The notes under the pieces were generated by a model. That model had not been told where the DNA came from. It did not search any database and saw only the letters and a list, made by a program, of their open reading frames with translations. Below, in pieces: positions 1 through 10,980 of a DNA stretch of 10,980 nucleotides. The position numbers were made by a program, and so were the translations under genes. The DNA comes from Candidatus Bathyarchaeota archaeon (GTDB lineage: Archaea > Thermoproteota > Bathyarchaeia > Bathyarchaeales > Bathycorpusculaceae), in contig CAVTZU010000030.1 in assembly GCA_963739305.1 (NCBI GenBank), positions 1 to 10,980 on the forward strand, in the 5' to 3' direction. Position 1 is the stretch's first letter, and the number at the start of each line of letters is the position of its first letter.

Positions 1-15
1 ATCCCAAACCCAAAC
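1..15. repeat. Right half of dispersed 26-bp quasi-palindrome plus CCAAAC tail (copy A, cut by window edge)
   Basis: ATCCCAAACCCAAAC at 1-15 is identical to 8886-8900. Confidence 0.75.
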
Positions 16-113
16 AACACAAATCCCCCTTTTTCTATTCAGTATAATGCTTAACCATTATGTCGCGCTCGCATCACGCTCGCGCTCCAACCCGCAAAAA
101 CTCAAAACAACAA

Positions 114-124
114 CTAGCGCGCAC
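114..124 (-). repeat. GCGCGCGCTAG-family junction motif
   Basis: CTAGCGCGCAC; reverse complement GTGCGCGCTAG matches the consensus at 10/11. Lies upstream of the probable true start (216) of the first CDS. Confidence 0.6.
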
Positions 125-215
125 TAATTTGCGAAACGTGGCGTGTCGCTGTGGGAGACGATCTTCAAAAGACTTATCTTTTAGCTCATCAAACAGACTA
201 TTGGTGCAACTTGAG

Positions 216-1640
216 ATGGGGGTCTTGCTCAAGGCAAGCATTGCGGTGTTTTCCATCCTTATCCTGTTCGGGTTGTTTCCGCTTGGTCGGCAGACCTCTT
301 TAATGTACGGGTCAAGTTCAGCGTCAAATGCTCCTTCCGTAGTGGCAGAAACTGAATTCAACTATCCAATTGGCACAAAGGGAAATCAGATTTTCTTCCA
401 TGACGGATACTGGTTTGTTTTCTACTTCAACGGTTCAGACGTAGCTTGCACTGACGGCGTGATCCTTTACAAATCTTCTTCGGACGGTGAAAACTGGAGT
501 GACCCGCAAATCGCGGCGGAAGATGCGAACATCTCCGTGTACTTCAGTCTCTACCAGTTTAACGATACGGTGGTCGTTGCATACACGTCAATGCAAGCCT
601 TCTCCAGCGATTCTTTCTTCGATTGCATCGTCAGAACCAGAATGGGAACAATATCTTCAAGAAACATTATTTTGGAAACGCCAACTGTTCTACTGAGCGG
701 GCCTGAAATCGGCGGGAGAATCTGCGATTATTGGGGTGATTATGCCTTCGATAGACATTGGCTGACCATCGAATACCTTTATGGAGGAATTGAATACAGA
801 TGCGCAATCTTCTCTACAACTGACTTTGTCACTTGGGACCTCAGCAAAGATTGGATCAACGCAAACGGCGGATACGTTTCACAGGTGACTTTGAAGTACG
901 TAGAAGACAGCAGGCTCATGGCTCTCTATGGAAGTTGGGGAGGCAACGAGTTCAACTACATGTTCTACAACGGTTCAGAGTGGAGCAACGAATACGCGAC
1001 TTCAGGTGCCGACTTGGATTATGGGTTATACAAGGCTCAGTGCGAAACAGTGGTCAACGGAACAATGTATATGCTGTACTCGCACTGGGATTATGTCACA
1101 AACCTGAAACTTGCCGTTTACAACGGAAGCTGGTATTTCAGCGACTTTCTGCTGAACCAAAGCTATTGGGGAGGCGACAGTTCAGCTACTTTCGACACTG
1201 TCACGGGCAGAATATACTTCTTCTACATAAACGCTGAAACAAACCAAGTACTGGCGGCATACTCGATGGACTATGTGAATTGGGTCAAAGACGTGAAAGT
1301 GGATGAAGTCAACTCTGATTACGTGCGCCGAACCAGAACCTCGGAGTCCTGCGTCGGAAACCCAGCTGTCGCTTGGATAGCAGGCTCGACGCCGCCTTTC
1401 CAAATAAGGTTTCAAATATTGGCTTCCATTGGCGAATCCACAGACTCGTCTGTGAAAACAGGCAAATTTGGATATGTGAATTCCAACGGCAACGTTGATA
1501 TTTTCAATTACATCCTAGCCGTCGACTCTTTCGGGTGCGTTGTGGGAGACCCAAAATGGAATTCCGCAGCTGATCAAAACCATGACGGGCAAGTCGACAT
1601 CTACGATATGATTTTGATTTCGCAAGATTTTGGAAAGTAA
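216..1640 (+). CDS. Secreted Asp-box (BNR) beta-propeller protein, sialidase-like fold, with C-terminal dockerin-like domain
   Basis: Start moved from 60 to ATG 216, which opens a hydrophobic signal/anchor (MGVLLKASIAVFSILILFGLFPL); codons 60-215 are basic, low-complexity and overlap intergenic-type repeats. Asp-box-like motifs SSDGENW, STTDFVTW, SMDYVNW. C-terminal GYVNSNGNVDIFNY...ADQNHDGQVDIYDMILISQDFG is a dockerin/EF-hand-like pair with a degenerate first repeat. Confidence 0.8.
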   Translation: MGVLLKASIAVFSILILFGLFPLGRQTSLMYGSSSASNAPSVVAETEFNYPIGTKGNQIFFHDGYWFVFYFNGSDVACTDGVILYKSSSDGENWSDPQIAAEDANISVYFSLYQFNDTVVVAYTSMQAFSSDSFFDCIVRTRMGTISSRNIILETPTVLLSGPEIGGRICDYWGDYAFDRHWLTIEYLYGGIEYRCAIFSTTDFVTWDLSKDWINANGGYVSQVTLKYVEDSRLMALYGSWGGNEFNYMFYNGSEWSNEYATSGADLDYGLYKAQCETVVNGTMYMLYSHWDYVTNLKLAVYNGSWYFSDFLLNQSYWGGDSSATFDTVTGRIYFFYINAETNQVLAAYSMDYVNWVKDVKVDEVNSDYVRRTRTSESCVGNPAVAWIAGSTPPFQIRFQILASIGESTDSSVKTGKFGYVNSNGNVDIFNYILAVDSFGCVVGDPKWNSAADQNHDGQVDIYDMILISQDFGK

Positions 1641-1655
1641 TAAGTTCAAATCATA

Positions 1656-1668
1656 TAGCGCGCGCTAG
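1656..1668. repeat. GCGCGCGCTAG junction motif within perfect 12-bp palindrome TAGCGCGCGCTA
   Basis: TAGCGCGCGCTAG, about 15 nt after the stop of the beta-propeller gene; 11/11 consensus match at 1658-1668. Confidence 0.75.
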
Positions 1669-1745
1669 TATACGCTTAGGAATTAAACACAGATAGAACT
1701 CCTCGATGATGAGGCATTTACGATGGGCTTGCGTCGGAGTTGGAA

Positions 1746-1970
1746 ATGACTCTGGAACGAGTGTACAAAGACTACCTTCTGTTTATTGCTTTCTCAGGGC
1801 TGATTCTGGTTTCTATTATTGCTTTGTATGAATATTTCACCATTCATGACACGAGGCTTTTGTTTTTGGGTGTGGTTTCGATGGTGCTTGGAGTCCTGGG
1901 GACAATAGCACGAGTAGTGTTCACTGTCGAGTTTTGGCGGGCAATCTTTCAGAATTGGAGAAAACATTGA
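1746..1970 (+). CDS. Small hypothetical membrane protein (2 TM helices)
   Basis: GGAG at 1736-1739 precedes ATG 1746 (alternative TTG 1740). Two hydrophobic stretches and a basic C-terminus. Confidence 0.65.
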   Translation: MTLERVYKDYLLFIAFSGLILVSIIALYEYFTIHDTRLLFLGVVSMVLGVLGTIARVVFTVEFWRAIFQNWRKH

Positions 1971-1981
1971 AGAGAATTTGT

Positions 1982-2013
1982 GTGTGGGATAAAACTTTAC
2001 CCCAAACCCAGAC
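1982..2013. repeat. 26-bp quasi-palindrome plus tail (copy B, inverted relative to copy C)
   Basis: GTGTGGGATAAAACTTTACCCCAAACCCAGAC; 1985-2007 is the exact 23-bp reverse complement of 8869-8891. Confidence 0.85.
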
Positions 2014-2032
2014 TTTCGACCTAGTTCAACAA

Positions 2033-2047
2033 TTTTCTACTTTTTTT
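2033..2047 (+). terminator. Archaeal oligo-T terminator candidate
   Basis: TTTTCTACTTTTTTT downstream of the 1746-1970 CDS. Confidence 0.4.
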
Positions 2048-2130
2048 CCTTAACAATGGGTATGCTTCAATGATTACCGCGGCCGCCACGCGATCAATCC
2101 ATGAAGCATCGAAGTGAGGAGCTCCGCAAC

Positions 2131-2140
2131 TTTTAAAAAA
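2131..2140 (+). promoter_or_regulatory. TATA box candidate for a leaderless or short-leader cyclophilin mRNA
   Basis: TTTTAAAAAA starting 24 nt upstream of ATG 2155. Confidence 0.45.
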
Positions 2141-2154
2141 CGGATTTTCCACAT

Positions 2155-2892
2155 ATGACTAGGCTGAATGAAATGAGGGCGCTTCCAATCTTCATCGGAC
2201 TCTTTCTTGCATTGATCCTAATGCCATGTTACGGAATTGGTTCTGCAACGCATACGGCGTATGCAGCTAACAGTTCACCAAGTCTTAAGGACACCAACAG
2301 TCAGTACTCTAAAGTTCAAGATGATGTCGTAATCCTCGTTACGTCGATGGGCAACATATCAATCGAGGTGTTTGCCGACATGCCGATTACATCTGGCAAC
2401 TTCAAAAACCTAACTCAATACGGCATCTATGACGGAACGATATTTCACAGAGTCGCCCACGGCTTTGTTATTCAAGGTGGCGACGCAACCTCGAAAGGAA
2501 TTATCGTGCCAACCATACCTGACGAGCTTCCGAACAAGCACAGTAATATCAGAGGGTCAGTTGCAATGGCAAAAACAAGTCAGCCGAATTCGGCTAATAG
2601 CCAGTTTTACATAAACCTCGTCAACAATACGGATTTGGACACCAGATACACTGTTTTCGGCAAAGTAATCGCTGGAATGAGCGTGGTCGACAGCATAGGT
2701 AGCGTTCAAACAGTTCCTTCGGATGATGGTCAGCCAGTCACTACTATCACTATTCTGCACGCGGTGTTGGGCCAACCGGTGCCCGAATATTCGCTATTGA
2801 TTCTGCTGACCTTGTTCGTGACTTCGACTCTTGTTGCAATCGGTCTTCACAGAAAAAAGCCGAGGCCAACGACGAGAAACCTTCGGAACTAG
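2155..2892 (+). CDS. Secreted cyclophilin-type peptidyl-prolyl cis-trans isomerase with PEF-CTERM-like anchor
   Basis: Cyclophilin motifs FHRVAHGFVIQGGD, GSVAMAK, NSANSQFYIN and LDTRYTVFGKV. N-terminal signal peptide; C-terminal VPEY, TM helix and basic tail (HRKKPR). Start could be the second Met (2173). Confidence 0.92.
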   Translation: MTRLNEMRALPIFIGLFLALILMPCYGIGSATHTAYAANSSPSLKDTNSQYSKVQDDVVILVTSMGNISIEVFADMPITSGNFKNLTQYGIYDGTIFHRVAHGFVIQGGDATSKGIIVPTIPDELPNKHSNIRGSVAMAKTSQPNSANSQFYINLVNNTDLDTRYTVFGKVIAGMSVVDSIGSVQTVPSDDGQPVTTITILHAVLGQPVPEYSLLILLTLFVTSTLVAIGLHRKKPRPTTRNLRN

Positions 2893-2942
2893 TACGATAA
2901 TCTGAGCTCTCGAACATAGTTTTGCTAGGGTTTGAACACAAG

Positions 2943-2951
2943 TTTTAAGTA
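2943..2951 (+). promoter_or_regulatory. TATA box candidate for the small ORF-small ORF-integrase unit
   Basis: TTTTAAGTA preceded by A-rich AACACAAG, upstream of the 2988 ORF, which has GGAGAG before its TTG. Confidence 0.4.
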
Positions 2952-2987
2952 TGAATAGGGCTCTTTATTTATTTCTCATGGAGAGCC

Positions 2988-3182
2988 TTGAAAGATATGA
3001 ATGAGTCCGACGTAATACGCAGAGCTCTAGGCACTCGCCCTAATGCGATAATTTGCTATGGTGAAGATAAAGTAGAACTGGAATCAATAGACCATCAATG
3101 TCGAAAAATTATTTCAGTTCCTAAACATCTCTTACCAAAAGTCAGAGTTTATCATGGCTCCAAGACTCATGGAAGCAGATGA
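2988..3182 (+). CDS. Hypothetical small protein upstream of integrase
   Basis: 64-aa ORF with GGAGAG before the start; overlaps the next small ORF in an operon-like arrangement. No recognisable family. Confidence 0.45.
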   Translation: MKDMNESDVIRRALGTRPNAIICYGEDKVELESIDHQCRKIISVPKHLLPKVRVYHGSKTHGSR

Positions 3183-3324
3183 ATGGAAGACAATAAGAAA
3201 ATACGTCAGAAGTGTCGTCTTGGCGATTTTAGTCATTGACTTGGGATCTTCAGTTTCTGATGAACGAGAATTGAAGGATGAGCTTTTTAAGCAACTTGTG
3301 GCGGCGCGGGCTAGGAAGGAATAA
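3169..3324 (+). CDS. Hypothetical 51-aa protein (not in ORF track) directly upstream of integrase
   Basis: MEADEWKTIRKYVRSVVLAILVIDLGSSVSDERELKDELFKQLVAARARKE*; alternative in-frame ATG at 3154. Stop is 2 nt before the integrase ATG, and the ORF fills the gap between its neighbours. Confidence 0.5.
   Translation: MEADEWKTIRKYVRSVVLAILVIDLGSSVSDERELKDELFKQLVAARARKE
3304..3314 (+). repeat. GCGCGCGCTAG-family motif just upstream of integrase start
   Basis: GCGCGGGCTAG, 10/11 to consensus, ending 12 nt before ATG 3327. Confidence 0.45.
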
Positions 3325-3326
3325 GC

Positions 3327-4544
3327 ATGAAATACCAAGATAGTCAGATATGGGAAGATCAAGTTCTCAAACGTTGGTTAGACACTATCGTTAAGCCTGG
3401 CACGAGAGCGAACTATCAGAGCGCGTTCAAGGCTTACCTGGAATACACAAAGATAACACCAAGTCAAATGATAGATGAAGCCGTCGAGGATTCAAAGAAG
3501 GATCCGCGACAGAGAAGAGACGTTCTGCTCACAAGGGTTCTAGGGTTCTATGCATGGTTGAAGACTGACTACCCAAAGAAGAGCCGAGGAACTGGAGTGC
3601 ATAGAGTCATAGGGAAGGGAATAAGCGACAAGTTGGCGACATGCTACACGGCTGCGATCAGGTCTTTCTATGGAACGTATGATTTGACTATCAAGCTGCG
3701 AGGCAGAAGACGAATACCCAAGGCAAGAGTCACAAACAAACGAATGATAGTTGGAGCTGAACAAGTCAAAGTTCTCTTTGACCACGCGAGGAGCCCAAGA
3801 GACAGAGCCATAATCCTAGTGAACTTTCAAGGTGGATTAGACGCGAGTACGCTGTGCAGTATCAAGTATGGTGACATAGCTGAAGGCCTAGCAAAGAATG
3901 AATATCCTCTCAAACTCGCTCTTCAAAGACCGAAGACCGGAACAGACTTCTACACGTTCCTAGGACATGACGCAATAGAAGCATTGAAGGCTTACCTTTC
4001 AGACATGAAACAGCGAGACGTAACCTTCACACATAGCACGCCTCTATTCTTGCAGGACAAAAGCAAGGCCTTGATGCTTCCAGAGAACATTCAAGAAATG
4101 ATGAAATTTGTCGCCCAGAGAGCCGGCTTCATTGATGGCAAGAACAACGGACACGAGTTTAACCCATTAGGACCGCACAGCTTGAGAGAATCCTTCGGAA
4201 GCATAATGACAAACTCAGGCGTTCCAGACACGATAATTGATTTTTGGTTAGGCCATGAAATCGGAGAACAGGCAGAAGCTTACAAGAGCGTACAGTTTGA
4301 CAGTCTCAAGAAGATGTATCTGGACCGAGAGAAGCTCATTTCAATTAGTGCTCAGAAGGTCGACGTTGAAGAAATCAAGGAGAAGCTCAGAGTAGAAGTT
4401 GAACAGCAAAACAGACAACTGCAAGCTATGGTGAACAGTCTAGTCACCGAGAACATGGATCTTAAGAATCGGCTTCAGTCAGTTGAACGGAAGCTTGAGG
4501 ATATAGGGAAAACTGTTTCAGAAATACGCAAGACATTAGATTGA
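3327..4544 (+). CDS. Tyrosine recombinase/integrase (phage integrase family) with C-terminal coiled coil
   Basis: N-terminal core-binding region (TRANYQSAF...AAIRSFY), RDRAIIL box, K203 (RPKTG), H284-x-x-R287 (HSLR), H310 (LGH) and Y319. Box I reads GGLDASTL, with D172 at the usual Arg position. Heptad-rich C-terminal ~65 aa. RBS-like AGGAAGGA upstream. Confidence 0.93.
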   Translation: MKYQDSQIWEDQVLKRWLDTIVKPGTRANYQSAFKAYLEYTKITPSQMIDEAVEDSKKDPRQRRDVLLTRVLGFYAWLKTDYPKKSRGTGVHRVIGKGISDKLATCYTAAIRSFYGTYDLTIKLRGRRRIPKARVTNKRMIVGAEQVKVLFDHARSPRDRAIILVNFQGGLDASTLCSIKYGDIAEGLAKNEYPLKLALQRPKTGTDFYTFLGHDAIEALKAYLSDMKQRDVTFTHSTPLFLQDKSKALMLPENIQEMMKFVAQRAGFIDGKNNGHEFNPLGPHSLRESFGSIMTNSGVPDTIIDFWLGHEIGEQAEAYKSVQFDSLKKMYLDREKLISISAQKVDVEEIKEKLRVEVEQQNRQLQAMVNSLVTENMDLKNRLQSVERKLEDIGKTVSEIRKTLD

Positions 4545-4581
4545 AAAATATCAAAGAGACGCAAAGAATAAATCGAGGGGA

Positions 4582-4600
4582 CTATTAACATTATTAATAG
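4582..4600. promoter_or_regulatory. AT-rich inverted repeat (promoter or protein-binding site candidate)
   Basis: CTATTAA-CATTA-TTAATAG: 7-bp arms, 5-bp spacer, immediately 5' of the structured element. Confidence 0.4.
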
Positions 4601-4656
4601 CGACTGGGAGGGTCGTCCATTCGACTCGCTACTAGGTTCGCCTAGTACCTGGTCGT
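4600..4656 (+). ncRNA. Candidate DUF3800-associated structured RNA (three-way junction)
   Basis: P1 GCGACUGGG(4600-4608)/CCUGGUCGU(4648-4656); P2 GGGUCG(4610-4615)/CGACUC(4622-4627); P3 UACUAGG(4630-4636)-UUCG-CCUAGUA(4641-4647). Four G-U pairs work only on the + strand. Ends about 30 nt before the DUF3800 ATG. Confidence 0.6.
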
Positions 4657-4685
4657 CCTTTATGATCTAACCGAGGACTTCACAT

Positions 4686-5420
4686 ATGCATCTTCTTTAT
4701 TTGGATGAATCGGGCGATCCAAACAGCTGGGAGAATCAAAAATGTTATGTTATAGCCGGCGTGGCAATCCATGAAGGCCAGATTTATGCAATAGGAGCGC
4801 AAATGGACAACGTCCAACAGAGGTACTTCCCGGCGATTCAGATTCCAATAGCGTTTCACGCAACAGACATAAGAAGACATAAAGGTCATTTTGATGGGCT
4901 TCCACGCAACACAAGGGATCAAATACTAGGAGACGTATATGCAATAATAGGCAATGCTACTTTTCCCAATCTAGTTGCATTTGCAACAGCTATCGACATT
5001 TCATCAGTAACAAGTCCTACTCAAGCACGCAGAGACGTTTTTGAAGATGTCTGTGAGAAATTCAATGGCTTCCTAATGCATCAATATCGCTTGGGACGCC
5101 CTACGAAAGGTTTGTTGCTTATTGACGAAAATCGCGCTGCCGAATATCGTGAACTAGTTAGTGATTTCAAGGCGCAAGGTACTACTCATGGCTTTCTCGG
5201 TAATGTTGTTGATATTCCCTATTTTGCCAGATGTCATCAAACCCGTATGTTACAACTTGCAGACTTTGTTGCCAACGCTGTTTTTCGGTACTATGAACGC
5301 GATAATACCGCTGATTTCAATGTCATATTACCAAGATTTTATAGAGGTCTAACGAACAGTCTGTCTTGCGGACTTAAGCACATGATCAGGGTAGACTGCA
5401 ACTGCGCAGCTTGTTCCTGA
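4686..5420 (+). CDS. DUF3800 domain protein (predicted RNase H-like fold)
   Basis: Hallmark N-terminal YLDESG, FHA motif, mid LLIDE and C-terminal LQLADFVANAVFR. GAGGA RBS at 4673-4677. Cys-rich tail CNCAAC. Confidence 0.88.
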   Translation: MHLLYLDESGDPNSWENQKCYVIAGVAIHEGQIYAIGAQMDNVQQRYFPAIQIPIAFHATDIRRHKGHFDGLPRNTRDQILGDVYAIIGNATFPNLVAFATAIDISSVTSPTQARRDVFEDVCEKFNGFLMHQYRLGRPTKGLLLIDENRAAEYRELVSDFKAQGTTHGFLGNVVDIPYFARCHQTRMLQLADFVANAVFRYYERDNTADFNVILPRFYRGLTNSLSCGLKHMIRVDCNCAACS

Positions 5421-5443
5421 GAGGCTAGACTTTTCTGCGCCTC
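5421..5443 (+). terminator. Hairpin immediately after the DUF3800 stop
   Basis: GAGGC-TAGA-cttt-TCTG-c-GCCTC; a second small hairpin CATCTT/AAGATG at 5455-5473 and a T-run near 5501. Confidence 0.3.
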
Positions 5444-5513
5444 CTTCGCGTTATCATCTTCTCAAAAAAGATGTTGTCGACTTCGTAAATTGATTTCATG
5501 TTTTTTCAGATCC

Positions 5514-5524
5514 TCGCGCGCGCT
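5514..5524. repeat. GCGCGCGC-family junction motif
   Basis: TCGCGCGCGCT, the exact reverse complement of AGCGCGCGCGA at 10799-10809; intergenic between DUF3800 and the 1026-aa gene. Confidence 0.6.
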
Positions 5525-5654
5525 TTTCTAATCTCACATAATCTGGACAGAGCATCATATGTTAATAACAGACAGATTCTTTGAAGCTCTTGTCTTGTGT
5601 AATATGCTCACTGATTTCATTGTAGCAGTGACCGATGGTGGAAGTTTCTTTCAT

Positions 5655-5698
5655 AAACCTTTTATCACGTGAAATTCATTCGTAATATGGGGAAGGAG
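5655..5698 (+). promoter_or_regulatory. TATA-like box and RBS of the large surface protein gene
   Basis: AAACC-TTTTATCA (TATA-like at 5660-5667) and GGAAGGAG (5691-5698) before TTG 5704. Confidence 0.5.
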
Positions 5699-5703
5699 TT
5701 AGC

Positions 5704-8700
5704 TTGTTTAGGAAGACTGTTTCTGTGGCAATGCTAGTATTGATTTTAGTAGGCATGTTTGCTCCAGCGTTTAACCTTCAGAGCGCGAGGTGCGAAAGTG
5801 CAACTACTGTCGTGGTTCCTGGAGCCGCTGGTCAATTGCCTCCTCCAGATTCTTGGGTTGATTCGGGCATCTCTCTTTCTTTTGGAGACGATGTCTCTAT
5901 TACTGCGACAGGCCGAGTGAGCTGGGATCAGGGTTATAATTGGGCCGGTCCAGACGGTGACCCTTCTTGGCCTTCTTCAAATGGGTTTGACAATCCTATC
6001 TTGCCGGGCGCACCAGTTGCAGCCCTAATTGCCAATATAGGTGGGGGACCGATTTTTCTTGTTGGAAGCGGACCTACTGCTGCTAACGGAGAAGGCGAAC
6101 TTATCTTCGCGGTCAATGATCAAATTGGCGGCAATTACAACAATATTGGTAGCTTCACTGTTACTATAGTGCGTGCGCGTGGGCAATTCACTATACACTG
6201 GGCTTCTCAGTATTATGGTGTGACTGCTGGCGAACAAACAAGCTTCGTGATATACCTTGACTACACCGCAGGTTTCAGCGGACTAGTAAAGCTTTCATTT
6301 CAAGGTCTTCCAACAGGGTGTGTTGGGCAGTTCGACATTGCAGAAGCACAGGCGCCAACAGTTCCCTACAGAACACTGTTTGTGACCACGCCATCAAACT
6401 TGAACAACGGAACATACACCTTCACCGTCAAAGGTGAGAGCGGCTCTGTTTCTCAAACAATACCCGTCACTCTCACAGTTGGCACAGGAGAAATAACTGG
6501 AATCATCTACAGGGATGACAATGGAAACGGAATAAGAGATCCGGGAGAACCTCCTGTTTCAGGCGCCACAGTAGGGTATTACGCGACCCAGAACTACATG
6601 AATCTGTATCAGACAGGTGTCACTTCTGACGCGAATGGAGCATTCACGCTCGTCAATGTTCCCTTCAACGTGGACAACGAAGTAGATGCGACCGCAACAG
6701 GCCTTAGACAAAGAGACATACGTATGAACATAATGAACCGGCCTGAAACGCAGCTCAACATAGGAATGTCAACTCCGCCTGCCAGTGGTTGGAGCACGTG
6801 CACCCAATTCAACATTGCATTTTCAAGCGTGAGTTTTTCCGAGTATTTGCGGCCTTGTGTCGAAGCCTACAACCTTCTTCATCCCTTCGACCAGATCAGC
6901 ATCGACAGCATAAACAGCTTGCCTCCGGTGAACTTTTATACGATAACTCAATCGTCTTCAGCAGATCAGGCAGAATTTGCCCAAGCTTTGTCTCAATTTT
7001 TGGGCATAACTAGCCCCCAGGGATATAATCCTGCTTATGTGTATATCCTTGAGTTTCCCTTCTTGCAGACAATAAACGCTTTGTTTGGCGCAAGCATTCA
7101 AGGACCGATAACCATTCCTATTCCTCCATCGAGCGGCGTGAGCCTTCTTCTTAGTGCCCAATCCATCTCCACGACACCAGGAGGCAACGTCATTCTGGCA
7201 TTCACATTTAGCAAAACTACAAACAGCGCGAAGGGCATCTTTGACTTGTTACGAGCGTTGGCAAGTACGTTGGTAACTATCGCGAAAATGGATCCAGTAG
7301 ATTTGATAAAAGATGGCGTGGATCTCTTCAAGGCGACAATTGAAACGTCCGGGGAAGACAGCATTAATGTGATTACATCTGATCTATATCAGACTGGGCA
7401 ATTGACTAGCTACACCCTCATAGATATGGTCCACATAGCTGACACTCTTTCAACCCTCACGACTGCAGGTGGAATTGTTAAGAAAACAATTCATCTGCTT
7501 ATGCACGGTACTGCAGCAGCTTCTCTCATCGATGTGCCTGATGATGTGAGGACGATCCTTGATGCACTGGATCTGACATTGGAGATTCTTCCTTACATGC
7601 CTGCGATGTCATTCCTCCAGAACAATACTCTCTTCCAGCTTTTCATGACTGGAGAGGGCATCATTGTCAGTGCGGTTGACCCGAACGGAACCACGATTGT
7701 CCCATCAGTTCTTGATATGACTGGTTCCCTCGTGGTGGGCTACAACTTTACCTCTGGCGATGTCACATATGCTAGTATTGAAGGCATATTAGTACCAGCT
7801 GCGGGCGACTGGTTGGTTCTGCTTAATGAGAGTGCGAGCAACCCTGTCAGTTATACTGTCTGCCTCTCAGCCATGGGCGGGAACGCTTCAGTTCCGTACA
7901 ACCTTCAAATATTAAGCTCTAACCAAAATGTGACTGCAATTGGATACAGCGGGATGGTTTTCGGGGGGACTTCCCTCACAATACCAGTCGACGTTGCTCC
8001 CAACGGCACACTCGTACAGCAGGACTACCTTGAGCCGTCTCTCTCCGTAAACGAGACTGGAAACATCTTTGATTTCTTTGCCACAGGATTTTTGTCCAAC
8101 GGTTCCCTTGTGCCAATTGACGAGGCATACCTGAACATTAACGGATCACAATATGAAATGACTCAGATCAATTCCTCAACGTATCAAATCCAAATTGGAA
8201 TCAATTCTTCTTCGCCGATCCAATTCAATGTCTACATGATCTCGTATAGCGTGCCTGGTGGATTTGCCACGGGAACCCTGCGGCACGAAGTTGCCGTCGC
8301 CAACCTGACACTAGCTAAGACAATAGTTGGACTGGGGTATGGTTTAGGTCTAAATGCGACCGTACAGAATCTAGGAGACTTCGATGAAACTCTCAACGTT
8401 ACAATCTATGCAAACTCAACCGCACTCAATCAAACAGAAATCGGTGTGTCGAGCACAGATTCTTCAATAATGCCGTTCACTTGGAACACCTCTGGGTTCG
8501 CTGAGGGCAATTTCACACTGAAAGTTTGCGTGGAACCTCTCCCAGGTGAAACCAATACTTCCGACAACAATGCCACATATACTTTGGTCAAGGTCACGAT
8601 TCCTGGAGACGTCAACGGGGACTTCACCGTTGACATCTACGACGCTATCATGCTTGCCGGTCACTTCAATCAGACTCCGGCCAATCCTTTGTGGAGTGCA

Positions 8701-8784
8701 AATATAGACATCAACGGTGACAGTATCGTCGACATCTACGATGCCATAATCTTAGCAGGACACTTCAACCAACACTTCCCATAA
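5704..8784 (+). CDS. Large secreted multidomain surface glycoprotein: LecA/PA-IL-like domain, Ig-like, SdrD B-like, helical region, CARDB, dockerin-like pair
   Basis: Signal peptide MFRKTVSVAMLVLILVGMFAPAF. WVDSGISLSFGDDVSITATG...ALIA...GELIFAVND...NNIGSFTVTI (PA-IL-like). ITGIIYRDDNGNGIRDPGEPPVSGATV (SdrD B/Cna-B). HEVAVANL...NATVQNLG...PGETNTSDN (CARDB). Duplicated GDVNGDFTVDIYDAIMLAGHF / DINGDSIVDIYDAIILAGHF (dockerin-like, ~8605-8781). Many N-x-S/T sequons. Confidence 0.88.
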   Translation: MFRKTVSVAMLVLILVGMFAPAFNLQSARCESATTVVVPGAAGQLPPPDSWVDSGISLSFGDDVSITATGRVSWDQGYNWAGPDGDPSWPSSNGFDNPILPGAPVAALIANIGGGPIFLVGSGPTAANGEGELIFAVNDQIGGNYNNIGSFTVTIVRARGQFTIHWASQYYGVTAGEQTSFVIYLDYTAGFSGLVKLSFQGLPTGCVGQFDIAEAQAPTVPYRTLFVTTPSNLNNGTYTFTVKGESGSVSQTIPVTLTVGTGEITGIIYRDDNGNGIRDPGEPPVSGATVGYYATQNYMNLYQTGVTSDANGAFTLVNVPFNVDNEVDATATGLRQRDIRMNIMNRPETQLNIGMSTPPASGWSTCTQFNIAFSSVSFSEYLRPCVEAYNLLHPFDQISIDSINSLPPVNFYTITQSSSADQAEFAQALSQFLGITSPQGYNPAYVYILEFPFLQTINALFGASIQGPITIPIPPSSGVSLLLSAQSISTTPGGNVILAFTFSKTTNSAKGIFDLLRALASTLVTIAKMDPVDLIKDGVDLFKATIETSGEDSINVITSDLYQTGQLTSYTLIDMVHIADTLSTLTTAGGIVKKTIHLLMHGTAAASLIDVPDDVRTILDALDLTLEILPYMPAMSFLQNNTLFQLFMTGEGIIVSAVDPNGTTIVPSVLDMTGSLVVGYNFTSGDVTYASIEGILVPAAGDWLVLLNESASNPVSYTVCLSAMGGNASVPYNLQILSSNQNVTAIGYSGMVFGGTSLTIPVDVAPNGTLVQQDYLEPSLSVNETGNIFDFFATGFLSNGSLVPIDEAYLNINGSQYEMTQINSSTYQIQIGINSSSPIQFNVYMISYSVPGGFATGTLRHEVAVANLTLAKTIVGLGYGLGLNATVQNLGDFDETLNVTIYANSTALNQTEIGVSSTDSSIMPFTWNTSGFAEGNFTLKVCVEPLPGETNTSDNNATYTLVKVTIPGDVNGDFTVDIYDAIMLAGHFNQTPANPLWSANIDINGDSIVDIYDAIILAGHFNQHFP

Positions 8785-8834
8785 CTTCAGACCAGCCACG
8801 TTCATTTGTTCAGTTGCCGACGGCGGTCAACCAC

Positions 8835-8847
8835 TCACGCTCGCGCT
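8835..8847 (+). repeat. 13-bp direct repeat TCACGCTCGCGCT
   Basis: Identical to 74-86; both copies lie near a 26-bp palindrome copy. Confidence 0.6.
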
Positions 8848-8868
8848 GCGCATTGAGCTTAGCGCGCA

Positions 8869-8900
8869 GTTTGGGGTAAAGTTTTATCCCAAACCCAAAC
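8869..8900. repeat. 26-bp quasi-palindrome plus CCAAAC tail (copy C)
   Basis: GTTTGGGGTAAA-GT-TTTATCCCAAAC (arms 11/12 complementary) followed by CCAAAC; flanked by TTAGCGCGCAG (8859-8869) and GCGAGCGCTAG (8907-8917, 10/11 to the 11-mer consensus). Confidence 0.85.
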
Positions 8901-8968
8901 CTTGGAGCGAGCGCTAGTAGAGATAAATAGCCTGACTGACAAGATAGAAATGAGAAGGACAACCTGAA

Positions 8969-9484
8969 ATGCGAAGACAGAAGACATTAACTCTTGTCGC
9001 ACTGTCAGTTACCGTTTTGATTCTCATGTCTTTCCTGACTCCAAGAGTCGTTTTCCCTGATCCTATCGGGAATCCAAATGATCGGGTCATCATTGAAGGA
9101 GCGCATATTGTCAGCGAAGGTGCATATTTCCGCTTTTTTGTTAAGAACAACTATTCTCAGCCTATATACGTTGCACTTGATGACAATGAAAAAGTCTACA
9201 TTTCAGCTTATAATTCAACGGATTTCGACGTCGTTGCACCTCAAGTCTTCTTTCCATGTGAAAACATTGTCTACACCTTCAAAATCCATCTGGCTTATCT
9301 TACAGACCCTGATTATGTGAGTGACAAACTCGAATACACGGTGCTGGTTGTTAGCACAATCTTCGTGCAAATATACAACTTCATCCTTCCATTTCTCATA
9401 ATCACATTAGGAATAGTAATTATTGCCTATTGTTTACTAGTAAGACGAACACGTGCACGCAGGATCAAAGCGCGTGCGCTATAG
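8969..9484 (+). CDS. Hypothetical membrane-anchored protein (N- and C-terminal TM, beta-rich middle domain)
   Basis: GAAGGA RBS-like sequence upstream; basic N-terminus plus hydrophobic helix; C-terminal TM plus Arg-rich tail. Confidence 0.75.
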   Translation: MRRQKTLTLVALSVTVLILMSFLTPRVVFPDPIGNPNDRVIIEGAHIVSEGAYFRFFVKNNYSQPIYVALDDNEKVYISAYNSTDFDVVAPQVFFPCENIVYTFKIHLAYLTDPDYVSDKLEYTVLVVSTIFVQIYNFILPFLIITLGIVIIAYCLLVRRTRARRIKARAL

Positions 9485-9506
9485 ACTAAGAATTGCAGAA
9501 AACAAA

Positions 9507-9530
9507 GCTAAGCGCGCGCGCTAGCAATTC
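9507..9530. repeat. GCGCGCGCTAG junction motif in a bulged hairpin between convergent genes
   Basis: AGCGCGCGCGCT palindrome at 9511-9522; GCGCGCGCTAG 11/11 at 9514-9524; GAATTGC(9490-9496)/GCAATTC(9524-9530) inverted repeat. Confidence 0.75.
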
Positions 9531-9563
9531 AATAAAACCTTTGGGTTAGCTCGGACACGCCCT

Positions 9564-9755
9564 TTATGTATCAGAAGTTTCAATCAAGTTACGTACAGCT
9601 ATTGCCTTATCAGAACTTTCATTGAACTTATAATATCGGATTCTCTTGCCAAACATGATATGCTGAAGGACACCCTCTGCCTCAAGGGCTTCAAGGTGCT
9701 TGGCGGCACTAGCATAGTTCACGCCAACTAGCCTAGCGATTTCCGATGGCGTCAC
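9564..9755 (-). CDS. Short or 5'-truncated winged helix-turn-helix (ArsR-like) regulator
   Basis: TPSEIARLVGVNYASAAKHLEALEAEGVLQHIMFGKRIRYYKF forms an HTH plus wing. Plausible GTG at 9755 overlaps the TGA of the upstream gene (GTGA). The first wHTH helix appears absent, and the ORF-track extension to 9842 overlaps another gene. Confidence 0.7.
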   Translation of the reverse strand: MTPSEIARLVGVNYASAAKHLEALEAEGVLQHIMFGKRIRYYKFNESSDKAIAVRNLIETSDT

Positions 9756-9964
9756 GCTTGTTTCCAGGTTTGGCGTAGGATTACTCCCAGAACCATAATC
9801 ATCAAGCCCAAAACGAACAGCGGTGGTCCATATGCAGCCCATGACACGTCATAAGCGGGTCTTGACGGAAAAAAATAAAGAGTCATGATAAATCCGCCAA
9901 TCATCATAAGTGCCCCAACAAGGTAACATGCAAGGATGGCATCTTCGCGGTCACTGTCTTTCAT
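9752..9964 (-). CDS. Small hypothetical membrane protein (2 TM helices)
   Basis: AILACYLVGALMMIGGFIMTLYFF and YGPPLFVLGLMIMVLGVIL; ATG at 9964 with TATA-like GCTATATA on the - strand at 9991-9998. Confidence 0.7.
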   Translation of the reverse strand: MKDSDREDAILACYLVGALMMIGGFIMTLYFFPSRPAYDVSWAAYGPPLFVLGLMIMVLGVILRQTWKQA

Positions 9965-10055
9965 AATCAATCATTTCAGTCTTCGACTTCTATATAGCAC
10001 TTTATTGCGCGCCAGAATGTAGAAAGTGCGGAAGGCGTCATCGCTGTTACCCTAG

Positions 10056-10801
10056 CTATGTTGCCTCCGCCGAGTTCTTAGCGCACGATTTCATCGCCCC
10101 ATTACTACCCTCATTTGAAGGAGAGTTCTCAAGAGGCTCAGGGTAACCGTGAACAGGAAAAGCCTTCGACATATCCAACAGTTCAGAAATAGTAAGGAGT
10201 TCCAAGTCTTTAGGTGTCCCAATAAATCGGCAGATCAGGCCAGTTTTGCCGTTAATGGTGTTTGGTACTGTCACAACGCGCATTGGATCAACGGAAACCG
10301 TGAAATGTCGTTTATCAAAGACATGGGTTTATTTTTGCAGAAGCTTAGTGAATTTGAACCTTGCCGCATGGTGAGCCCATATCGGGTCGTTCCAGTGGTA
10401 TTGGACCCAGTCGTAATAGTTGAAGTCCATAACGTGAACGTGGAAGCCTTGGCAACCGCTGAAAACAACAGCTATCTTTGAGTAGTATTGTTTTATAGCC
10501 TCGCAAAGATGCAGCGTTAACCCTTACTCATGTCCAAGCATTCTTCGCAGACATACCAGTGTTCGTCAACCTTGTGCTTATGAGGAAAAATAACCAGGTA
10601 ACTATCAACGTCAATAACGTATTCGCCGTTCACTGGAACGCAGTATTGAGCCTTGCACTTCTTTCCAACACGCTCAGGAAACAACCAGTTCAGCACGGAG
10701 AAATAGACGTGCATGGGCTTGAGTTTCCAACAGTAAAACCGCAAGTCCTTAGCTGATAAGCGGTTTTCAAAGGTGTTGAGCCTGACGAATCGGCCATCAG
10801 C
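10056..10801 (-). pseudogene. Archaeo-eukaryotic primase (PriS-like) pseudogene
   Basis: Reconstructed: ADGRFVRLNTFENRLSAKDLRFYCWKLKPMHVYFSVLNWLFPE...GEYVIDVD (motif I, DxD 10604-10612)...VCEECLDMSK[frameshift 10521-10522]LTLHLCEAIKQYYSKIAVVFSGCQGFHVHV (motif II, 10440-10460)...LLQK*[TAA 10329-10331]THVFDKRHFTVSVDPMRVVTVPNTINGKTGLIC... There is no start codon between the GCGC motif and the upstream in-frame TGA (10814-10816). Confidence 0.85.
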
Positions 10802-10812
10802 GCGCGCGATAG
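10799..10812. repeat. GCGCGCGCTAG-family motif at the truncation point of the primase gene
   Basis: AGCGCGCGCGATAG; 10802-10812 matches the consensus at 10/11. Confidence 0.7.
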
Positions 10813-10980
10813 ATCAGCTCAAAAAACCACTGTTACTCAAACATTATAATGGGAAAGCCTTATTTATTTACCATGCAGCAATACCACAAACAAAGGATTT
10901 GAAGATAAAACGGGCAAGGAGTAAAGGATGTTTCATATCAAATCAAACGTACATAGCCTACCTATGACTCAAGCATACAT

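Follow-up and report, generated by a model that had tools for sequence, protein, structure and literature searches.

A genome-wide alternating GC motif gathers at inserted, deleted or swapped DNA in a Candidatus Bathyarchaeota archaeon

Genes and GC motif copies at the locus

The window, by which we mean the whole analysed stretch of 10,980 nt, carries genes for a secreted protein, a tyrosine recombinase, a DUF3800 protein and a large surface protein, as well as the remnant of a primase-like gene. Short G+C motif copies and copies of a second dispersed repeat are found at the following positions:

114-124, minus strand: GC motif copy with one mismatch, some 90 nt ahead of position 213, the likely start of the secreted protein gene
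1656-1667, unstranded: perfect 12-nt palindrome with the strict run 1658-1665, beginning 17 nt past the stop (1638-1640) of gene 213-1640
1983-2013, unstranded: single hybrid copy of the second dispersed repeat, which forms a hairpin centred on AT, its arms rich in G/C
2923/2924, unstranded: left edge of the strain-variable island with the integrase, defined against contig C8
3304-3314, plus strand: one-mismatch copy lacking a strict run; the integrase start follows after 13 nt
3327-4544, plus strand: tyrosine recombinase (integrase; Pfam Phage_integrase E = 3e-14; phrog_1 integrase)
5515-5523, unstranded: strict 9-nt alternating GC run, 95 nt past the DUF3800 gene
8859-8917, unstranded: two degenerate GC copies (8859-8869, 8907-8917) flanking the second hairpin repeat
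8869-8900, unstranded: copy of the second repeat, folding as an 11-bp hairpin
9469-9524, unstranded: degenerate copy 9469-9482 and strict 10-nt run 9512-9521 at the spacer of a convergent gene pair
10033-10799, minus strand: archaeo-eukaryotic primase-like gene remnant in three frames, lacking about 40 N-terminal codons
10800-10808, unstranded: strict 9-nt GC run exactly where the primase-like remnant is cut

At a tolerance of one mismatch GCGCGCGCTAG matches the window eight times (114-124(-), 1655-1665(-), 1658-1668(+), 3304-3314(+), 5513-5523(-), 8907-8917(+), 9514-9524(+) and 10802-10812(+)) vs. 0.07 matches expected, and none of 200 dinucleotide-preserving shuffles attained this number. 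All six copies that the first-pass annotation had reported at this tolerance were recovered, which confirms their recurrence. Among the copies it had called weaker, those at 8859-8869, 9472-9482, 10007-10012 and 10078-10088 are readable in the window sequence; a copy does exist at 5514-5526, but it is not weak, being identical to the strict run 5515-5523. Strict runs that reach 8 nt or more of alternating GC (1658-1665, 5515-5523, 9512-9521 and 10800-10808) all fall outside likely genes. Of 1942 windows of equal length, 14% hold at least four strict runs and 1.4% at least eight matches to the annotated pattern; the window is motif-rich, not unique.

Although the copy at 114-124 falls within ORF 60-1640, the longest one, the alignment to relatives sets in at residue 2 of the protein starting at 213, and the copy is therefore placed upstream of the real gene start. 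It forms the 3' edge of a dispersed element of about 75 nt (47-122), copies of which are present in contigs C8, C15, C25, C26 and C28 and in genome G001, mostly with a GC run at the end; metagenome contigs diverge from the window past position 122. The palindrome at 1656-1667 is retained in the 99.3% identical C8 copy, one metagenome contig is 2 nt shorter there and thus represents a length variant of the GC unit, and past the stop of orthologues of gene 213-1640 in other species a GC-like motif tends to recur (four other loci). The copy at 3304-3314, located in a 380-nt module common to contig C17, is probably decayed or due to chance. Run 5515-5523 lies about 180 nt ahead of the large surface-protein gene. 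Copies 8859-8869 and 8907-8917 fold together in a nested stem (DNA fold of 8852-8922, -14.8 kcal/mol, z = -4.07), and copy 9469-9482, which overlaps the end of gene 8969-9484, can pair with run 9512-9521 in a 12-bp stem (DNA fold of 9466-9527, -16.6 kcal/mol, z = -2.92). Homology of the primase-like remnant to loci L005 and L006 stops at position 10799, while an intact 288-aa ORF runs on in these loci; the intact relative scores below the cut-offs of PriS models (E = 3e-13; PF01896 E = 0.0034).

The integrase has no paralogue in the genome, scores 75 bits against an archaeal XerA/integron-integrase model with a cut-off of 220 and stays under the cut-off of every Xer/integron model. Identity to C8 is 99.3% up to position 2923, past which C8 enters a translation-factor-like core gene, and neither a GC run nor a second-repeat copy was found within 45 nt of this island edge. 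The single-copy state, the low score and the run-free edge lend no support to the proposed tie between the motif and the neighbouring tyrosine recombinase. The two strain-level breakpoints of the window are this motif-free edge and the second hairpin repeat at 1983-2013, where C8 has a 2.67-kb insert between two second-repeat copies that is absent from the window. The one testable indel inside the window is bounded by the second repeat and not by the GC motif. With at most two mismatches, the 17-nt core of this repeat has 42 occurrences in the genome under study (G000) and 30 in G001 (reversed control, 0); the contig start lies inside a further copy (1-15), and at least three other contig ends break off within the repeat.

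Alternating GC runs across the genome and the lineage

At its core the motif consists of 8-10 nt of alternating GC, flanked weakly by TA. Among 355 genomic sites, preference is limited to a T-A before and a T-A after the run (44-50% each); the CTAG tail that the first-pass annotation had included in the motif is not conserved at these sites. Genome-wide, 351 such runs of at least 8 nt are distributed over 35 of 36 contigs (202 of 8 nt, 96 of 9, 48 of 10 and 5 of 11 nt or more), next to 150 runs of 7 nt, whereas other dinucleotide repeats provide only 13-65 runs of 8 nt. Intergenic DNA, which makes up 15% of the genome, holds 276 of 359 occurrences of GCGCGCGC, and the pattern in G001 is alike (359 of 455 runs), so that the intergenic share is approximately 77-79%. 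Enrichment was found in 11 of 11 genomes of the genus and in single genomes of five other genera, and copy numbers swing within single genera (121 vs. 4; 104 vs. 10).

Run density reaches 1.3-1.5 per kb in the first 40 nt past stops vs. 0.2-0.3 per kb in the 40 nt ahead of starts, and convergent spacers are the densest class (0.98 runs per kb). The 114 runs situated at most 80 nt past a stop share no T-tract or other conserved flank. Among five motif-bearing syntenic spacers one is common to both species. In 109 kb of alignments with 88-99% identity no whole-run gain or loss was detected, run differences being restricted to substitutions or one-base indels, and in near-identical contigs runs change at about the rate of their surroundings.

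Between conserved syntenic genes runs are 4-6 times rarer than beside species-specific genes. Per kb of spacer, densities in the syntenic, break, one-ortholog and no-ortholog classes are 0.18, 0.56, 0.74 and 1.03 in G000 and 0.23, 0.65, 1.01 and 1.32 in G001, the no-ortholog class including spurious ORFs because the gene model is crude (greedy selection among ORFs of 80 aa or longer). For spacers of at least 150 nt, a run is present in 4 of 84 syntenic vs. 124 of 583 non-conserved spacers in G000 (p = 9e-5) and in 7 of 91 vs. 207 of 654 in G001 (p = 4e-7). The genome scan that had been proposed for enrichment in variable DNA thus gave a positive answer, and since the runs are concentrated in variable DNA and at breakpoints, they are not evenly spread over core intergenic regions.

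Inserted, swapped and truncated DNA at the runs

Of 31 internal homology breakpoints between near-identical contigs (either strain variants or true paralogues), 7 are no more than 10 nt away from a run; about one was expected (0.0325 per breakpoint; P(at least 6) = 4e-4) when the null was drawn from near-gene-end positions, which corrects only roughly for the run enrichment there. Breakpoints are naturally near gene ends, where runs are already enriched. Similarly, homologues truncated on one side end at most 6 nt from 17 of 351 runs vs. 65 of 3000 intergenic sites chosen at random (odds ratio 2.3, p = 0.005). Both excesses are moderate, and the crude gene model underlies both. The earlier proposal that gene gain and loss breakpoints fall in the motif stands as a genome-wide excess; within the window, only one of three testable joints has the motif.

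Individual cases illustrate the kinds of DNA involved. Contig C2 has a 4.2-kb insert between two runs where its counterpart C3 has one run, a segment swapped between C13 and C17 has runs at four of four edges, and a C17 module has a run at each edge. On C1 a segment of 1.28 kb interrupts a histidine-triad (HIT)-like gene; an identical 9-nt run is present at both joints, and a duplication of 6-7 nt lies beyond these runs. The window's HTH gene has a copy on C8 that is likewise cut at a run. In the G001 orthologue checked at gene truncation points no GC run was found, and the segments between runs that were compared have no common sequence. The motif is a genome-wide lineage feature that gathers at inserted, deleted or swapped DNA.

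Possible origins of the runs

According to our best explanation, to which we assign a probability of roughly 0.5, the runs are what illegitimate end joining of a microhomology type leaves at the joint. Since a GC run is complementary to itself, any two ends carrying or receiving one could anneal in either orientation; for this reason a captured fragment might become bracketed by two runs. These would be direct repeats, and later recombination between them could delete the fragment and leave one solo run, which would decay through point mutation. Selection would purge runs from genes and core promoters, which might produce the intergenic, after-stop and variable-region pattern. A solo LTR is the single repeat left once two flanking repeats recombine, and filler or P/N nucleotides are short extra sequence at repaired joints; the runs resemble the former as left-over single repeats and the latter as extra joint sequence. 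However, solo LTRs are long, element-derived repeats and filler or P/N nucleotides are local-sequence-dependent or random, whereas the runs are an identical sequence recurring at unrelated joints. Several observations count against end joining: the breakpoint and truncation excesses are moderate, only one of three testable joints in the window has the motif, Ku/LigD presence does not follow the motif, about 90% of species-specific genes have no strict run within 100 nt downstream, and the GC-like motif past the stop of the gene 213-1640 orthologues would also fit a conserved function.

Alternatively, the runs might be dispersed palindromes that primarily do something else (for example as binding sites of a dimeric protein, as cruciform- or Z-DNA-prone elements or as selfish repeats), serve only passively as microhomology and accumulate where DNA is least constrained. 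This appears possible but somewhat doubtful. Dimer sites typically have a palindromic consensus such as the 12-bp one seen here, copies in pairs are able to fold into 12-bp stems, and a GC-like motif recurs past the stop in the four other orthologous loci. The after-stop, convergent-spacer and non-promoter distribution fits any repeat whose insertion is tolerated, the two-vs.-one pattern of C2 and C3 fits deletion between pre-existing copies, and the sharp swings in copy number between species recall bursts of selfish repeats. Against this, the G001 orthologue offers no GC-like sequence at the truncation points to serve as microhomology, sites are seldom conserved across species, runs change about as fast as their surroundings without whole-run gain or loss in collinear alignments, and the search for a mobilising gene found neither a Y1 transposase nor TnpB. 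REP/BIME/REPIN elements, which are associated with RAYT transposases in bacteria, are comparable in being lineage-specific, extragenic and palindromic with hundreds of copies, in peaking at gene 3' ends and between convergent genes, and in their fast turnover and link to rearrangements. Yet REPs are imperfect hairpins of 20-40 nt moved by a Y1 (RAYT) transposase, while the runs are 8-10 nt of alternating GC lacking a stem-loop of their own; no Y1 transposase was found, and the REP/RAYT reading failed its test. According to the description in PMC5861425, HIP1 (GCGATCGC), the highly iterated palindrome of cyanobacteria, likewise is an 8-bp G+C-rich palindrome of unknown function, over-represented many-fold in particular lineages. 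The runs differ in being approximately 77% intergenic, depleted in conserved regions and poorly conserved between species. HIP1 is common inside genes and is reportedly kept by selection.

It is unlikely that the runs act solely in transcription, as a terminator, insulator or regulator site for stand-alone genes, with the breakpoint link reflecting their position at transcription-unit ends. The enrichment just past stops and in convergent spacers, the depletion in operon-like syntenic spacers and the recurrence past the stop of orthologues would agree with such a signal, but the after-stop runs lack a T-tract or conserved flank, sites are poorly conserved between species, runs occur at cut points in gene remnants and at both joints of the gene-splitting insert, and the breakpoint excess persists under the near-gene-end null.

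The first-pass annotation had interpreted the motif as a non-attC cassette core served by the neighbouring tyrosine recombinase in integron-like single-gene shuffling, which now seems very improbable. Integrons have reportedly been found in archaea. As in integron cassettes (IntI, attI, attC), short repeats border single accessory genes, often downstream of the ORF, with one copy at the empty site (C3) and two at the filled site (C2); a tyrosine recombinase is present in the window, and the runs bracket some swapped or inserted segments with surface-protein genes and no recombinase. Nevertheless, there is neither an attC-like structured site of 60-140 nt nor an IntI-type integrase, and instead of an array beside the integrase the motif spreads over hundreds of sites on nearly all contigs, including arbitrary cut points within genes. 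As a usual tyrosine-recombinase core, 8-10 bp between non-conserved flanks would probably be too short. The integrase is a low-scoring, single-copy gene in a strain-variable island with a run-free left edge, and a strict run within 100 nt downstream accompanies only about 10% of species-specific genes (18% with one mismatch). The integron-like idea consequently failed on the dispersed motif, the absent attC-like structure and the unlinked integrase.

Equally slight are the chances that the runs are specifically scars of Ku/LigD non-homologous end joining, the GC run being written by the LigD primase-polymerase. G000 has an operon for LigD primase-polymerase, Ku and a ligase with phosphoesterase, and within the genus 8 of 11 genomes were found to have Ku, the other three (65-89% complete) showing the lowest run density (6-12 vs. 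14-49 per Mb). However, in a 201-genome sample of the order three of the six genomes that reach 30 copies have no Ku match, most of 50 Ku-positive genomes, including 28 of genus g33, have just 0-14 copies, and the primase-polymerase gene is apparently split in G001, the motif-richest genome. As Ku/LigD presence fails to track the motif, this specific origin did not pass its test; neither the neighbouring integrase nor the Ku/LigD operon is supported as the cause of the runs.

It is scarcely credible that the runs are the terminal inverted repeats, or the footprints left on excision, of a transposon or a miniature inverted-repeat element moving by cut-and-paste with target-site duplications: the TA flanks and palindromic form, which we take to resemble Tc1/IS630-type footprints, and the duplication at the C1 insertion would fit, but flanking duplications of at least 6 nt show no genome-wide excess (9 pairs vs. 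about 10 expected among 2164 run pairs), which largely refutes this origin, no multi-copy element of at least 300 nt was found save overlapping contig ends, the segments between runs share no sequence, and Y1 and TnpB transposases were not found.

Returning to end joining in general, the archaeal replicative primase PriSL joins ends via microhomology down to two G-C pairs and has terminal-transferase activity (PMC12019639). End joining by PriSL(X), and by LigD primase-polymerase/Ku, uses very short G-C microhomology, terminal transfer and discontinuous-template extension, but the products as reported are mostly 1-2 bp indels, and a defined (GC)n joint of 8-10 nt is not known to have been described. 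Joining of the PriSL(X) or LigD/Ku type would leave a short G+C joint at arbitrary breaks. The motif, a short palindrome of (GC)4-5 flanked weakly by TA, has reached hundreds of copies in this archaeal lineage, probably Bathyarchaeia, and may, with about even odds, represent the chromosome-wide joints of the flexible genome instead of a cassette system of the window.

Form and distribution of the GC run

The window is a complete small contig (10,980 bp) of an assembly of 2.32 Mb in 36 contigs, here called G000. It contains GCGCGCGCTAG eight times at no more than one mismatch, against an expectation of 0.07, and none of 200 shuffles held eight. All motif copies reported by the first-pass annotation were found again in the window, and the weaker ones are readable as well; the CTAG tail that it included in the motif is not conserved among 355 genomic sites. 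The flanks of these sites show a preference only for T-A on either side of a strictly alternating GC stretch (44–50% each), the consensus is the palindrome TAGCGCGCGCTA, and no conserved wider flank was found. Such stretches of at least 8 nt are referred to as runs in the following; those of the window are listed with its genes and with the copies of a second dispersed repeat, an AT-centred hairpin.

Genes, strict GC runs (at least 8 nt) and second-repeat copies in the window
1-15, second repeat
213-1640, secreted protein gene; with this start, alignments to relatives begin at residue 2
1658-1665, strict GC run
1740-1970, small membrane ORF
1983-2013, second repeat
2155-2892, membrane-anchored cyclophilin
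2997-3182, small ORF
3327-4544, tyrosine recombinase
4686-5420, DUF3800 protein
5515-5523, strict GC run
5704-8784, 1026-aa dockerin/PA-IL surface protein
8869-8900, second repeat
8969-9484, 171-aa membrane protein
9512-9521, strict GC run
9564-9842, minus strand, small winged-helix protein
10033-10799, minus strand, broken primase-like gene
10800-10808, strict GC run

G000 contains 351 runs of at least 8 nt, spread over 35 of its 36 contigs. The length distribution of GC runs is humped (7 nt, 150; 8 nt, 202; 9 nt, 96; 10 nt, 48; longer, 5), whereas the other dinucleotide repeats decay smoothly with length (13–65 runs of 8 nt), which argues for a defined element of 8–10 nt and against a microsatellite. 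A core of this size cannot fold alone, and stems arise only from occasional pairs of runs. Adjacent runs keep no constant distance and are merely clustered. Among 1942 windows of 11 kb, 868 are free of runs and 14% have at least four, an over-dispersed distribution.

When genes were approximated by ORFs of 80 aa or more, a crude model under which 85% of the genome is coding, 276 of 359 occurrences of GCGCGCGC in G000 are intergenic (~77%). Tandem spacers hold 128 runs and convergent and divergent spacers 63 each, the density being highest in convergent spacers (0.98 per kb). Run density reaches 1.3–1.5 per kb in the first 40 nt past stop codons, compared to about 0.6, and falls to 0.2–0.3 per kb, near exclusion, in the 40 nt upstream of starts. 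Intrinsic or oligo-T archaeal terminators were dismissed, since T enrichment is absent around the 114 runs lying within 80 nt past a stop.

The complete genome of a member of the same genus (G001; 455 runs, 359 of them intergenic) was compared with G000 by means of reciprocal best hits, which yielded 1260 gene pairs with a median identity of 74%. Runs per kb amount to 0.23 in G001 and 0.18 in G000 for spacers of conserved adjacent gene pairs, 0.65 and 0.56 for synteny-break spacers, 1.01 and 0.74 where one neighbouring gene is species-specific, and 1.32 and 1.03 where both are, with the proviso that the gene calls are crude and the class without ortholog contains spurious ORFs. When only spacers of 150 nt or more are counted, runs occur in 7 of 91 syntenic vs. 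207 of 654 non-conserved ones in G001 (p = 4e-7), and in 4 of 84 vs. 124 of 583 in G000 (p = 9e-5). An even spread over core intergenic regions, named by the first-pass annotation as the outcome that would speak against its cassette idea, is thus not what we found, as the runs favour non-syntenic spacers. In the first 800 kb, one of five motif-bearing syntenic spacers was common to both species. Of the species-specific genes of at least 150 aa, ~10% have a strict run in the 100 nt downstream (18% if one mismatch is allowed), compared to 3–4.5% of the conserved genes, and a system with one site per cassette is not compatible with such low proportions.

Beyond these two genomes, the element is unevenly distributed. 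AGCGCGCGCT occurs 82 times in G000, compared to 4 times for the reversed control, and 7–114 times in all 11 genomes of the genus; most relatives have 0–1 copies. Among 201 sampled genomes of the order, five others, belonging to five genera, contain 30–121 copies of AGCGCGCGCT, and the contrasts within genera are steep (121 vs. 4, 104 vs. 10), which indicates sporadic and lineage-specific expansion. CTAGCGCGCGCTAG was found in 14 viral contigs, none with similarity to G000 or G001; one of them is small, circular and ssDNA-virus-like, and its two matches represent a single site in the terminal overlap. The sequence is present in peat and sediment metagenomes, and no RNA dataset is listed among the sequencing datasets that contain it. 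This occurrence, together with a weak protein-atlas lead to Bathyarchaeota, is a tentative sign that the organism belongs to Bathyarchaeia.

Rearrangement joints and gene remnants

Many pieces of the G000 assembly overlap at 90–99.4% identity; these may represent strain variants or paralogues. Overlaps of 2–10 kb with other contigs, at 95–99.4% identity, are common at contig ends, and the end of one contig, C10, is an inverted match of 7.3 kb to the contig itself. Closely related strains seem to be mixed in the assembly, which would inflate its "contamination" figure and duplicate some genes.

The near-identical contigs yielded 32 rows of internal homology breakpoints, one of them a duplicate. 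At the 31 distinct points a strict run was located within 10 nt in 7 cases and within 45 nt in 8. Under a null model of positions near gene ends in either haplotype, the chance per breakpoint is 0.0325 for 10 nt and 0.091 for 45 nt, which gives P(>=6) = 4e-4 and P(>=8) = 0.006. The proposal that breakpoints fall at the motif is partly supported genome-wide, with 7 of 31 within 10 nt; in the window itself, one of three examinable joints shows this association. The second repeat lies within 10 nt of another 5 of the 31. A run lies within 100 nt of 7 of the 72 contig ends, more than under a null of any position (1.5%), but the intergenic null (6%) is not clearly surpassed, and GC palindromes that are difficult to sequence could be the cause.

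Several loci exemplify such breakpoints. Contig C2 carries a 4.2-kb segment, encoding a dockerin/cohesin-like protein and a large binding protein, between two runs where C3 has one run, and the two alignments overlap by 10 nt. A 2.0-kb segment of C13 and an unrelated 2.9-kb segment of C17 take the same position as each other, and a run lies at each of the four edges. Moreover, C17 shares with the window a 380-nt module (window 2960-3339) that has runs at both edges in C17, where the integrase gene is replaced beyond its third codon. In collinear alignments, comprising 109 kb and ~30 runs, changes within runs were confined to four substitution sites and one one-base indel, and the gain or loss of a whole run was never seen.

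Gene remnants were surveyed by blastx of 360 nt on either side of each run against the G001 proteins, with runs inside genes excluded and a truncation defined as a homologue lacking at least 40 residues. Of the 351 runs, 17 have a truncated homologue ending within 6 nt, in comparison to 65 of 3000 random intergenic sites (odds ratio 2.3, p = 0.005), and truncations make up 17 of the 24 homology ends within this distance at runs and 65 of 204 at the control sites. The N-terminal part is absent in 14 of the 17; silent, promoter-less remnants may survive longer. Junction views revealed no GC-like sequence at the corresponding cut point of the G001 orthologue.

On C1, a HIT-like gene is interrupted by 1.28 kb containing a degenerate second half of a HIT-like gene and another gene, with an identical 9-nt run at each joint and a duplication of 6–7 nt outside the two runs. 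The HIT-family gene of this locus (C1:64126-65844, equivalent to 1126-2844 of locus L153) consists of a frameshifted copy and a separate intact C-terminal half, and an mtd-like gene lies between the two pieces. Across all run pairs, duplications of at least 6 nt are not in excess (9 of 2164 vs. about 10 expected from permuted flanks), and MITEs or other cut-and-paste transposons were rejected on this ground.

The window island and other dispersed repeats

Window positions 3-2010 and 1984-2923 align to contig C8 at 99.3% identity. C8 has an additional 2.67 kb here, coding for a dockerin protein, an HTH gene fragment and a methyltransferase-like ORF and flanked by two copies of the second repeat, of which the window retains one hybrid copy (1983-2013); no GC run is involved at this joint. 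At 2923/2924 the window departs from C8, which continues into a translation-factor-like core gene, and within 45 nt of this point there is neither a run nor a second-repeat copy. For 10799/10800, the comparison is with a 288-aa primase-like ORF that is intact in two genomes of the genus: homology ends exactly at a run, while the ORF continues past the cut point in both relatives; the remaining homology ends in both primase-like loci likewise adjoin GC runs. The fragment of the window's HTH gene on C8 is also cut at a run. The run at 1658 is identical in the window and C8 and 2 nt shorter in one metagenome contig.

Positions 2924-10980 constitute an island of 8 kb or more that varies between strains; its right end lies outside the contig. 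It encodes the small ORF, the integrase, the DUF3800 protein, the surface protein, the winged-helix protein and the broken primase-like gene. With an integrase, DUF3800, small DNA-binding proteins and a primase remnant, its gene content looks like that of a decayed integrated plasmid or virus. Metagenome word depth is ~15–23 on 367-2928 and mostly 0–15 on 3295-8418, which hints at a minority variant, although such depths, derived from short unitigs, cannot rank parts of the window. The best-supported loose ends of metagenome contigs listed (47, 92, 122, 5627 and 8869-8903) are dispersed-repeat edges; 1658, 9514 and 10802 are absent among them.

The integrase is a generic tyrosine recombinase (Pfam E = 3e-14; phrog_1). 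It falls well short of the thresholds of the Xer/integron models: with NF040815, its best NCBIfam match, it reaches 75 bits where the cut-off is 220. It is single-copy in a genome with ~15 other tyrosine-recombinase matches, and its relatives in the genome contig collection are limited to one distant match in Bacillota. A cassette system served by this enzyme, as envisaged by the first-pass annotation, finds no backing, given that only generic tyrosine-recombinase models match and the left edge of the island lacks a run. It is an ordinary island integrase, and the window is no special cassette platform.

Both large secreted proteins (213-1640 and 5704-8784) have dockerin-like calcium-binding repeats at their ends, and gene 3′ ends resembling theirs are present on 12 or more other contigs (68–83% nucleotide identity), which suggests a large family of dockerin-tagged surface proteins. 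For the 475-aa protein, the protein atlas gave only dockerin-type leads with values below 0.9 and a weak one to Bathyarchaeota. Pfam searches of small ORFs and remnant pieces gave no matches, nor did Rfam for the whole window up to E = 1, and ARAGORN detected no tRNA.

The second repeat consists of an AT-centred core of ~17 nt flanked by a G-rich and a C-rich arm, and it can fold into an 11-bp hairpin. There are 42 copies of the 17-nt core in G000 and 30 in G001, against none for the reversed control; copies are located on C2, C8, C10, C12, C13, C15, C17, C18, C23, C25, C28 and C29 in addition to the window. It is conserved across the genus, reaches very high word depth in peat metagenomes and borders indels of 2.67 and 0.6 kb, and several contigs terminate within it. 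A GC run lies within 50 nt of 6 of the 42 copies in G000 and 6 of the 30 in G001. Another dispersed element of ~75 nt (window 47-122), with 83–95% identity between copies and species, was found on C8, C15 (three copies), C25, C26 (two) and C28 and in G001. An AT-rich, promoter-like stretch precedes the element, which usually has a GC run at its end and is without a match in Rfam; a small RNA gene and a portable leader are both conceivable. Finally, the 71 nt at 5557-5627, upstream of the large surface-protein gene, recur on C1 (97% and 87%) and in another member of the genus (93%), and metagenome contigs diverge just past 5627.

Origin of the runs

On the reading that fits best, the runs are the sequence left at joints by illegitimate end joining. 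GC ends, being self-complementary, could anneal in either orientation, captured DNA would thereby become bracketed by two runs, and recombination between paired runs would leave a solo run, which would then decay. End joining would explain why whole-run indels are absent from collinear DNA, why runs lie at arbitrary cut points and bracket unrelated segments, why they are biased toward unconstrained, variable DNA, and why they are poorly conserved between species. A study on the archaeal replicative primase PriSL describes the annealing of ends via as few as two G-C pairs, template-free nucleotide addition and extension across the gap, with mostly 1–2 bp indels among the products reported there (PMC12019639). 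In its specific form, to which we assign a probability of roughly 0.35, our hypothesis is that a repair activity of this lineage, possibly microhomology end joining by a primase-polymerase, writes or selects a self-complementary (GC)4-5 tail at breaks. Every illegitimate insertion, deletion or capture would be stamped with a palindrome of 8–10 nt, and pairs of stamps would recombine to solo stamps.

The main rival explanation is that the palindrome has some other role and is merely used as microhomology. A Ku/LigD scar of non-homologous end joining (NHEJ) was a further candidate. G000 encodes a LigD primase-polymerase, Ku and an ATP-dependent ligase fused to a 3′-phosphoesterase (C32:50049-53120; 6049-9120 of locus L152), a complete archaeal NHEJ operon located between housekeeping genes. 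This candidate looked promising inside the genus and was rejected because motif abundance does not follow Ku across the order: Ku is present in 50 of the 201 sampled genomes, mostly larger genomes of one family, most of these 50 are motif-poor, and only 3 of 6 motif-rich genomes have it.

HIP1 is likewise a short palindrome that is over-represented genome-wide in one lineage. It often lies within genes and is kept at orthologous positions, in contrast to the GC runs, which are ~77% intergenic and shared at one of five syntenic sites. A REP-like element, another option raised for the motif, lacks both its gene and its unit: PF01797 (Y1 transposase), the RAYT family of REP/REPIN systems, is unmatched in G000 (97% complete) and matched in control genomes, and REP units are imperfect palindromes of 20–40 nt that form hairpins, unlike a core of 8–10 nt. 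No TnpB gene was found. An integron-like array is not supported either: integrons combine an IntI-type recombinase with an adjacent contiguous array of one site per cassette, their attC sites being structured imperfect inverted repeats with RYYYAAC/GTTRRRY cores, whereas here a generic integrase sits in a strain-variable island and runs of 8–10 nt with weak TA flanks are dispersed over 35 of 36 contigs, downstream of ~10% of species-specific genes (18% at one mismatch).

For the cassette idea the practical message is negative. Our literature search retrieved no paper on such a motif in archaea, and on a cautious reading, too, the palindrome is undescribed and hyper-abundant, and its expansions are sporadic and occur at the species level. 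Accessory-gene turnover in archaea without classical mobile-element machinery is poorly known, as is double-strand-break repair in vivo. If the end-joining hypothesis is true, intergenic GC runs are a readable rearrangement record of the flexible genome and reflect a recombinase-free path for the gain and loss of gene cassettes. A sequence marking rearrangement joints would expose past indels in genomic and metagenomic sequences of these archaea, which are abundant in peat and sediment, and would point to a specific end-joining chemistry.
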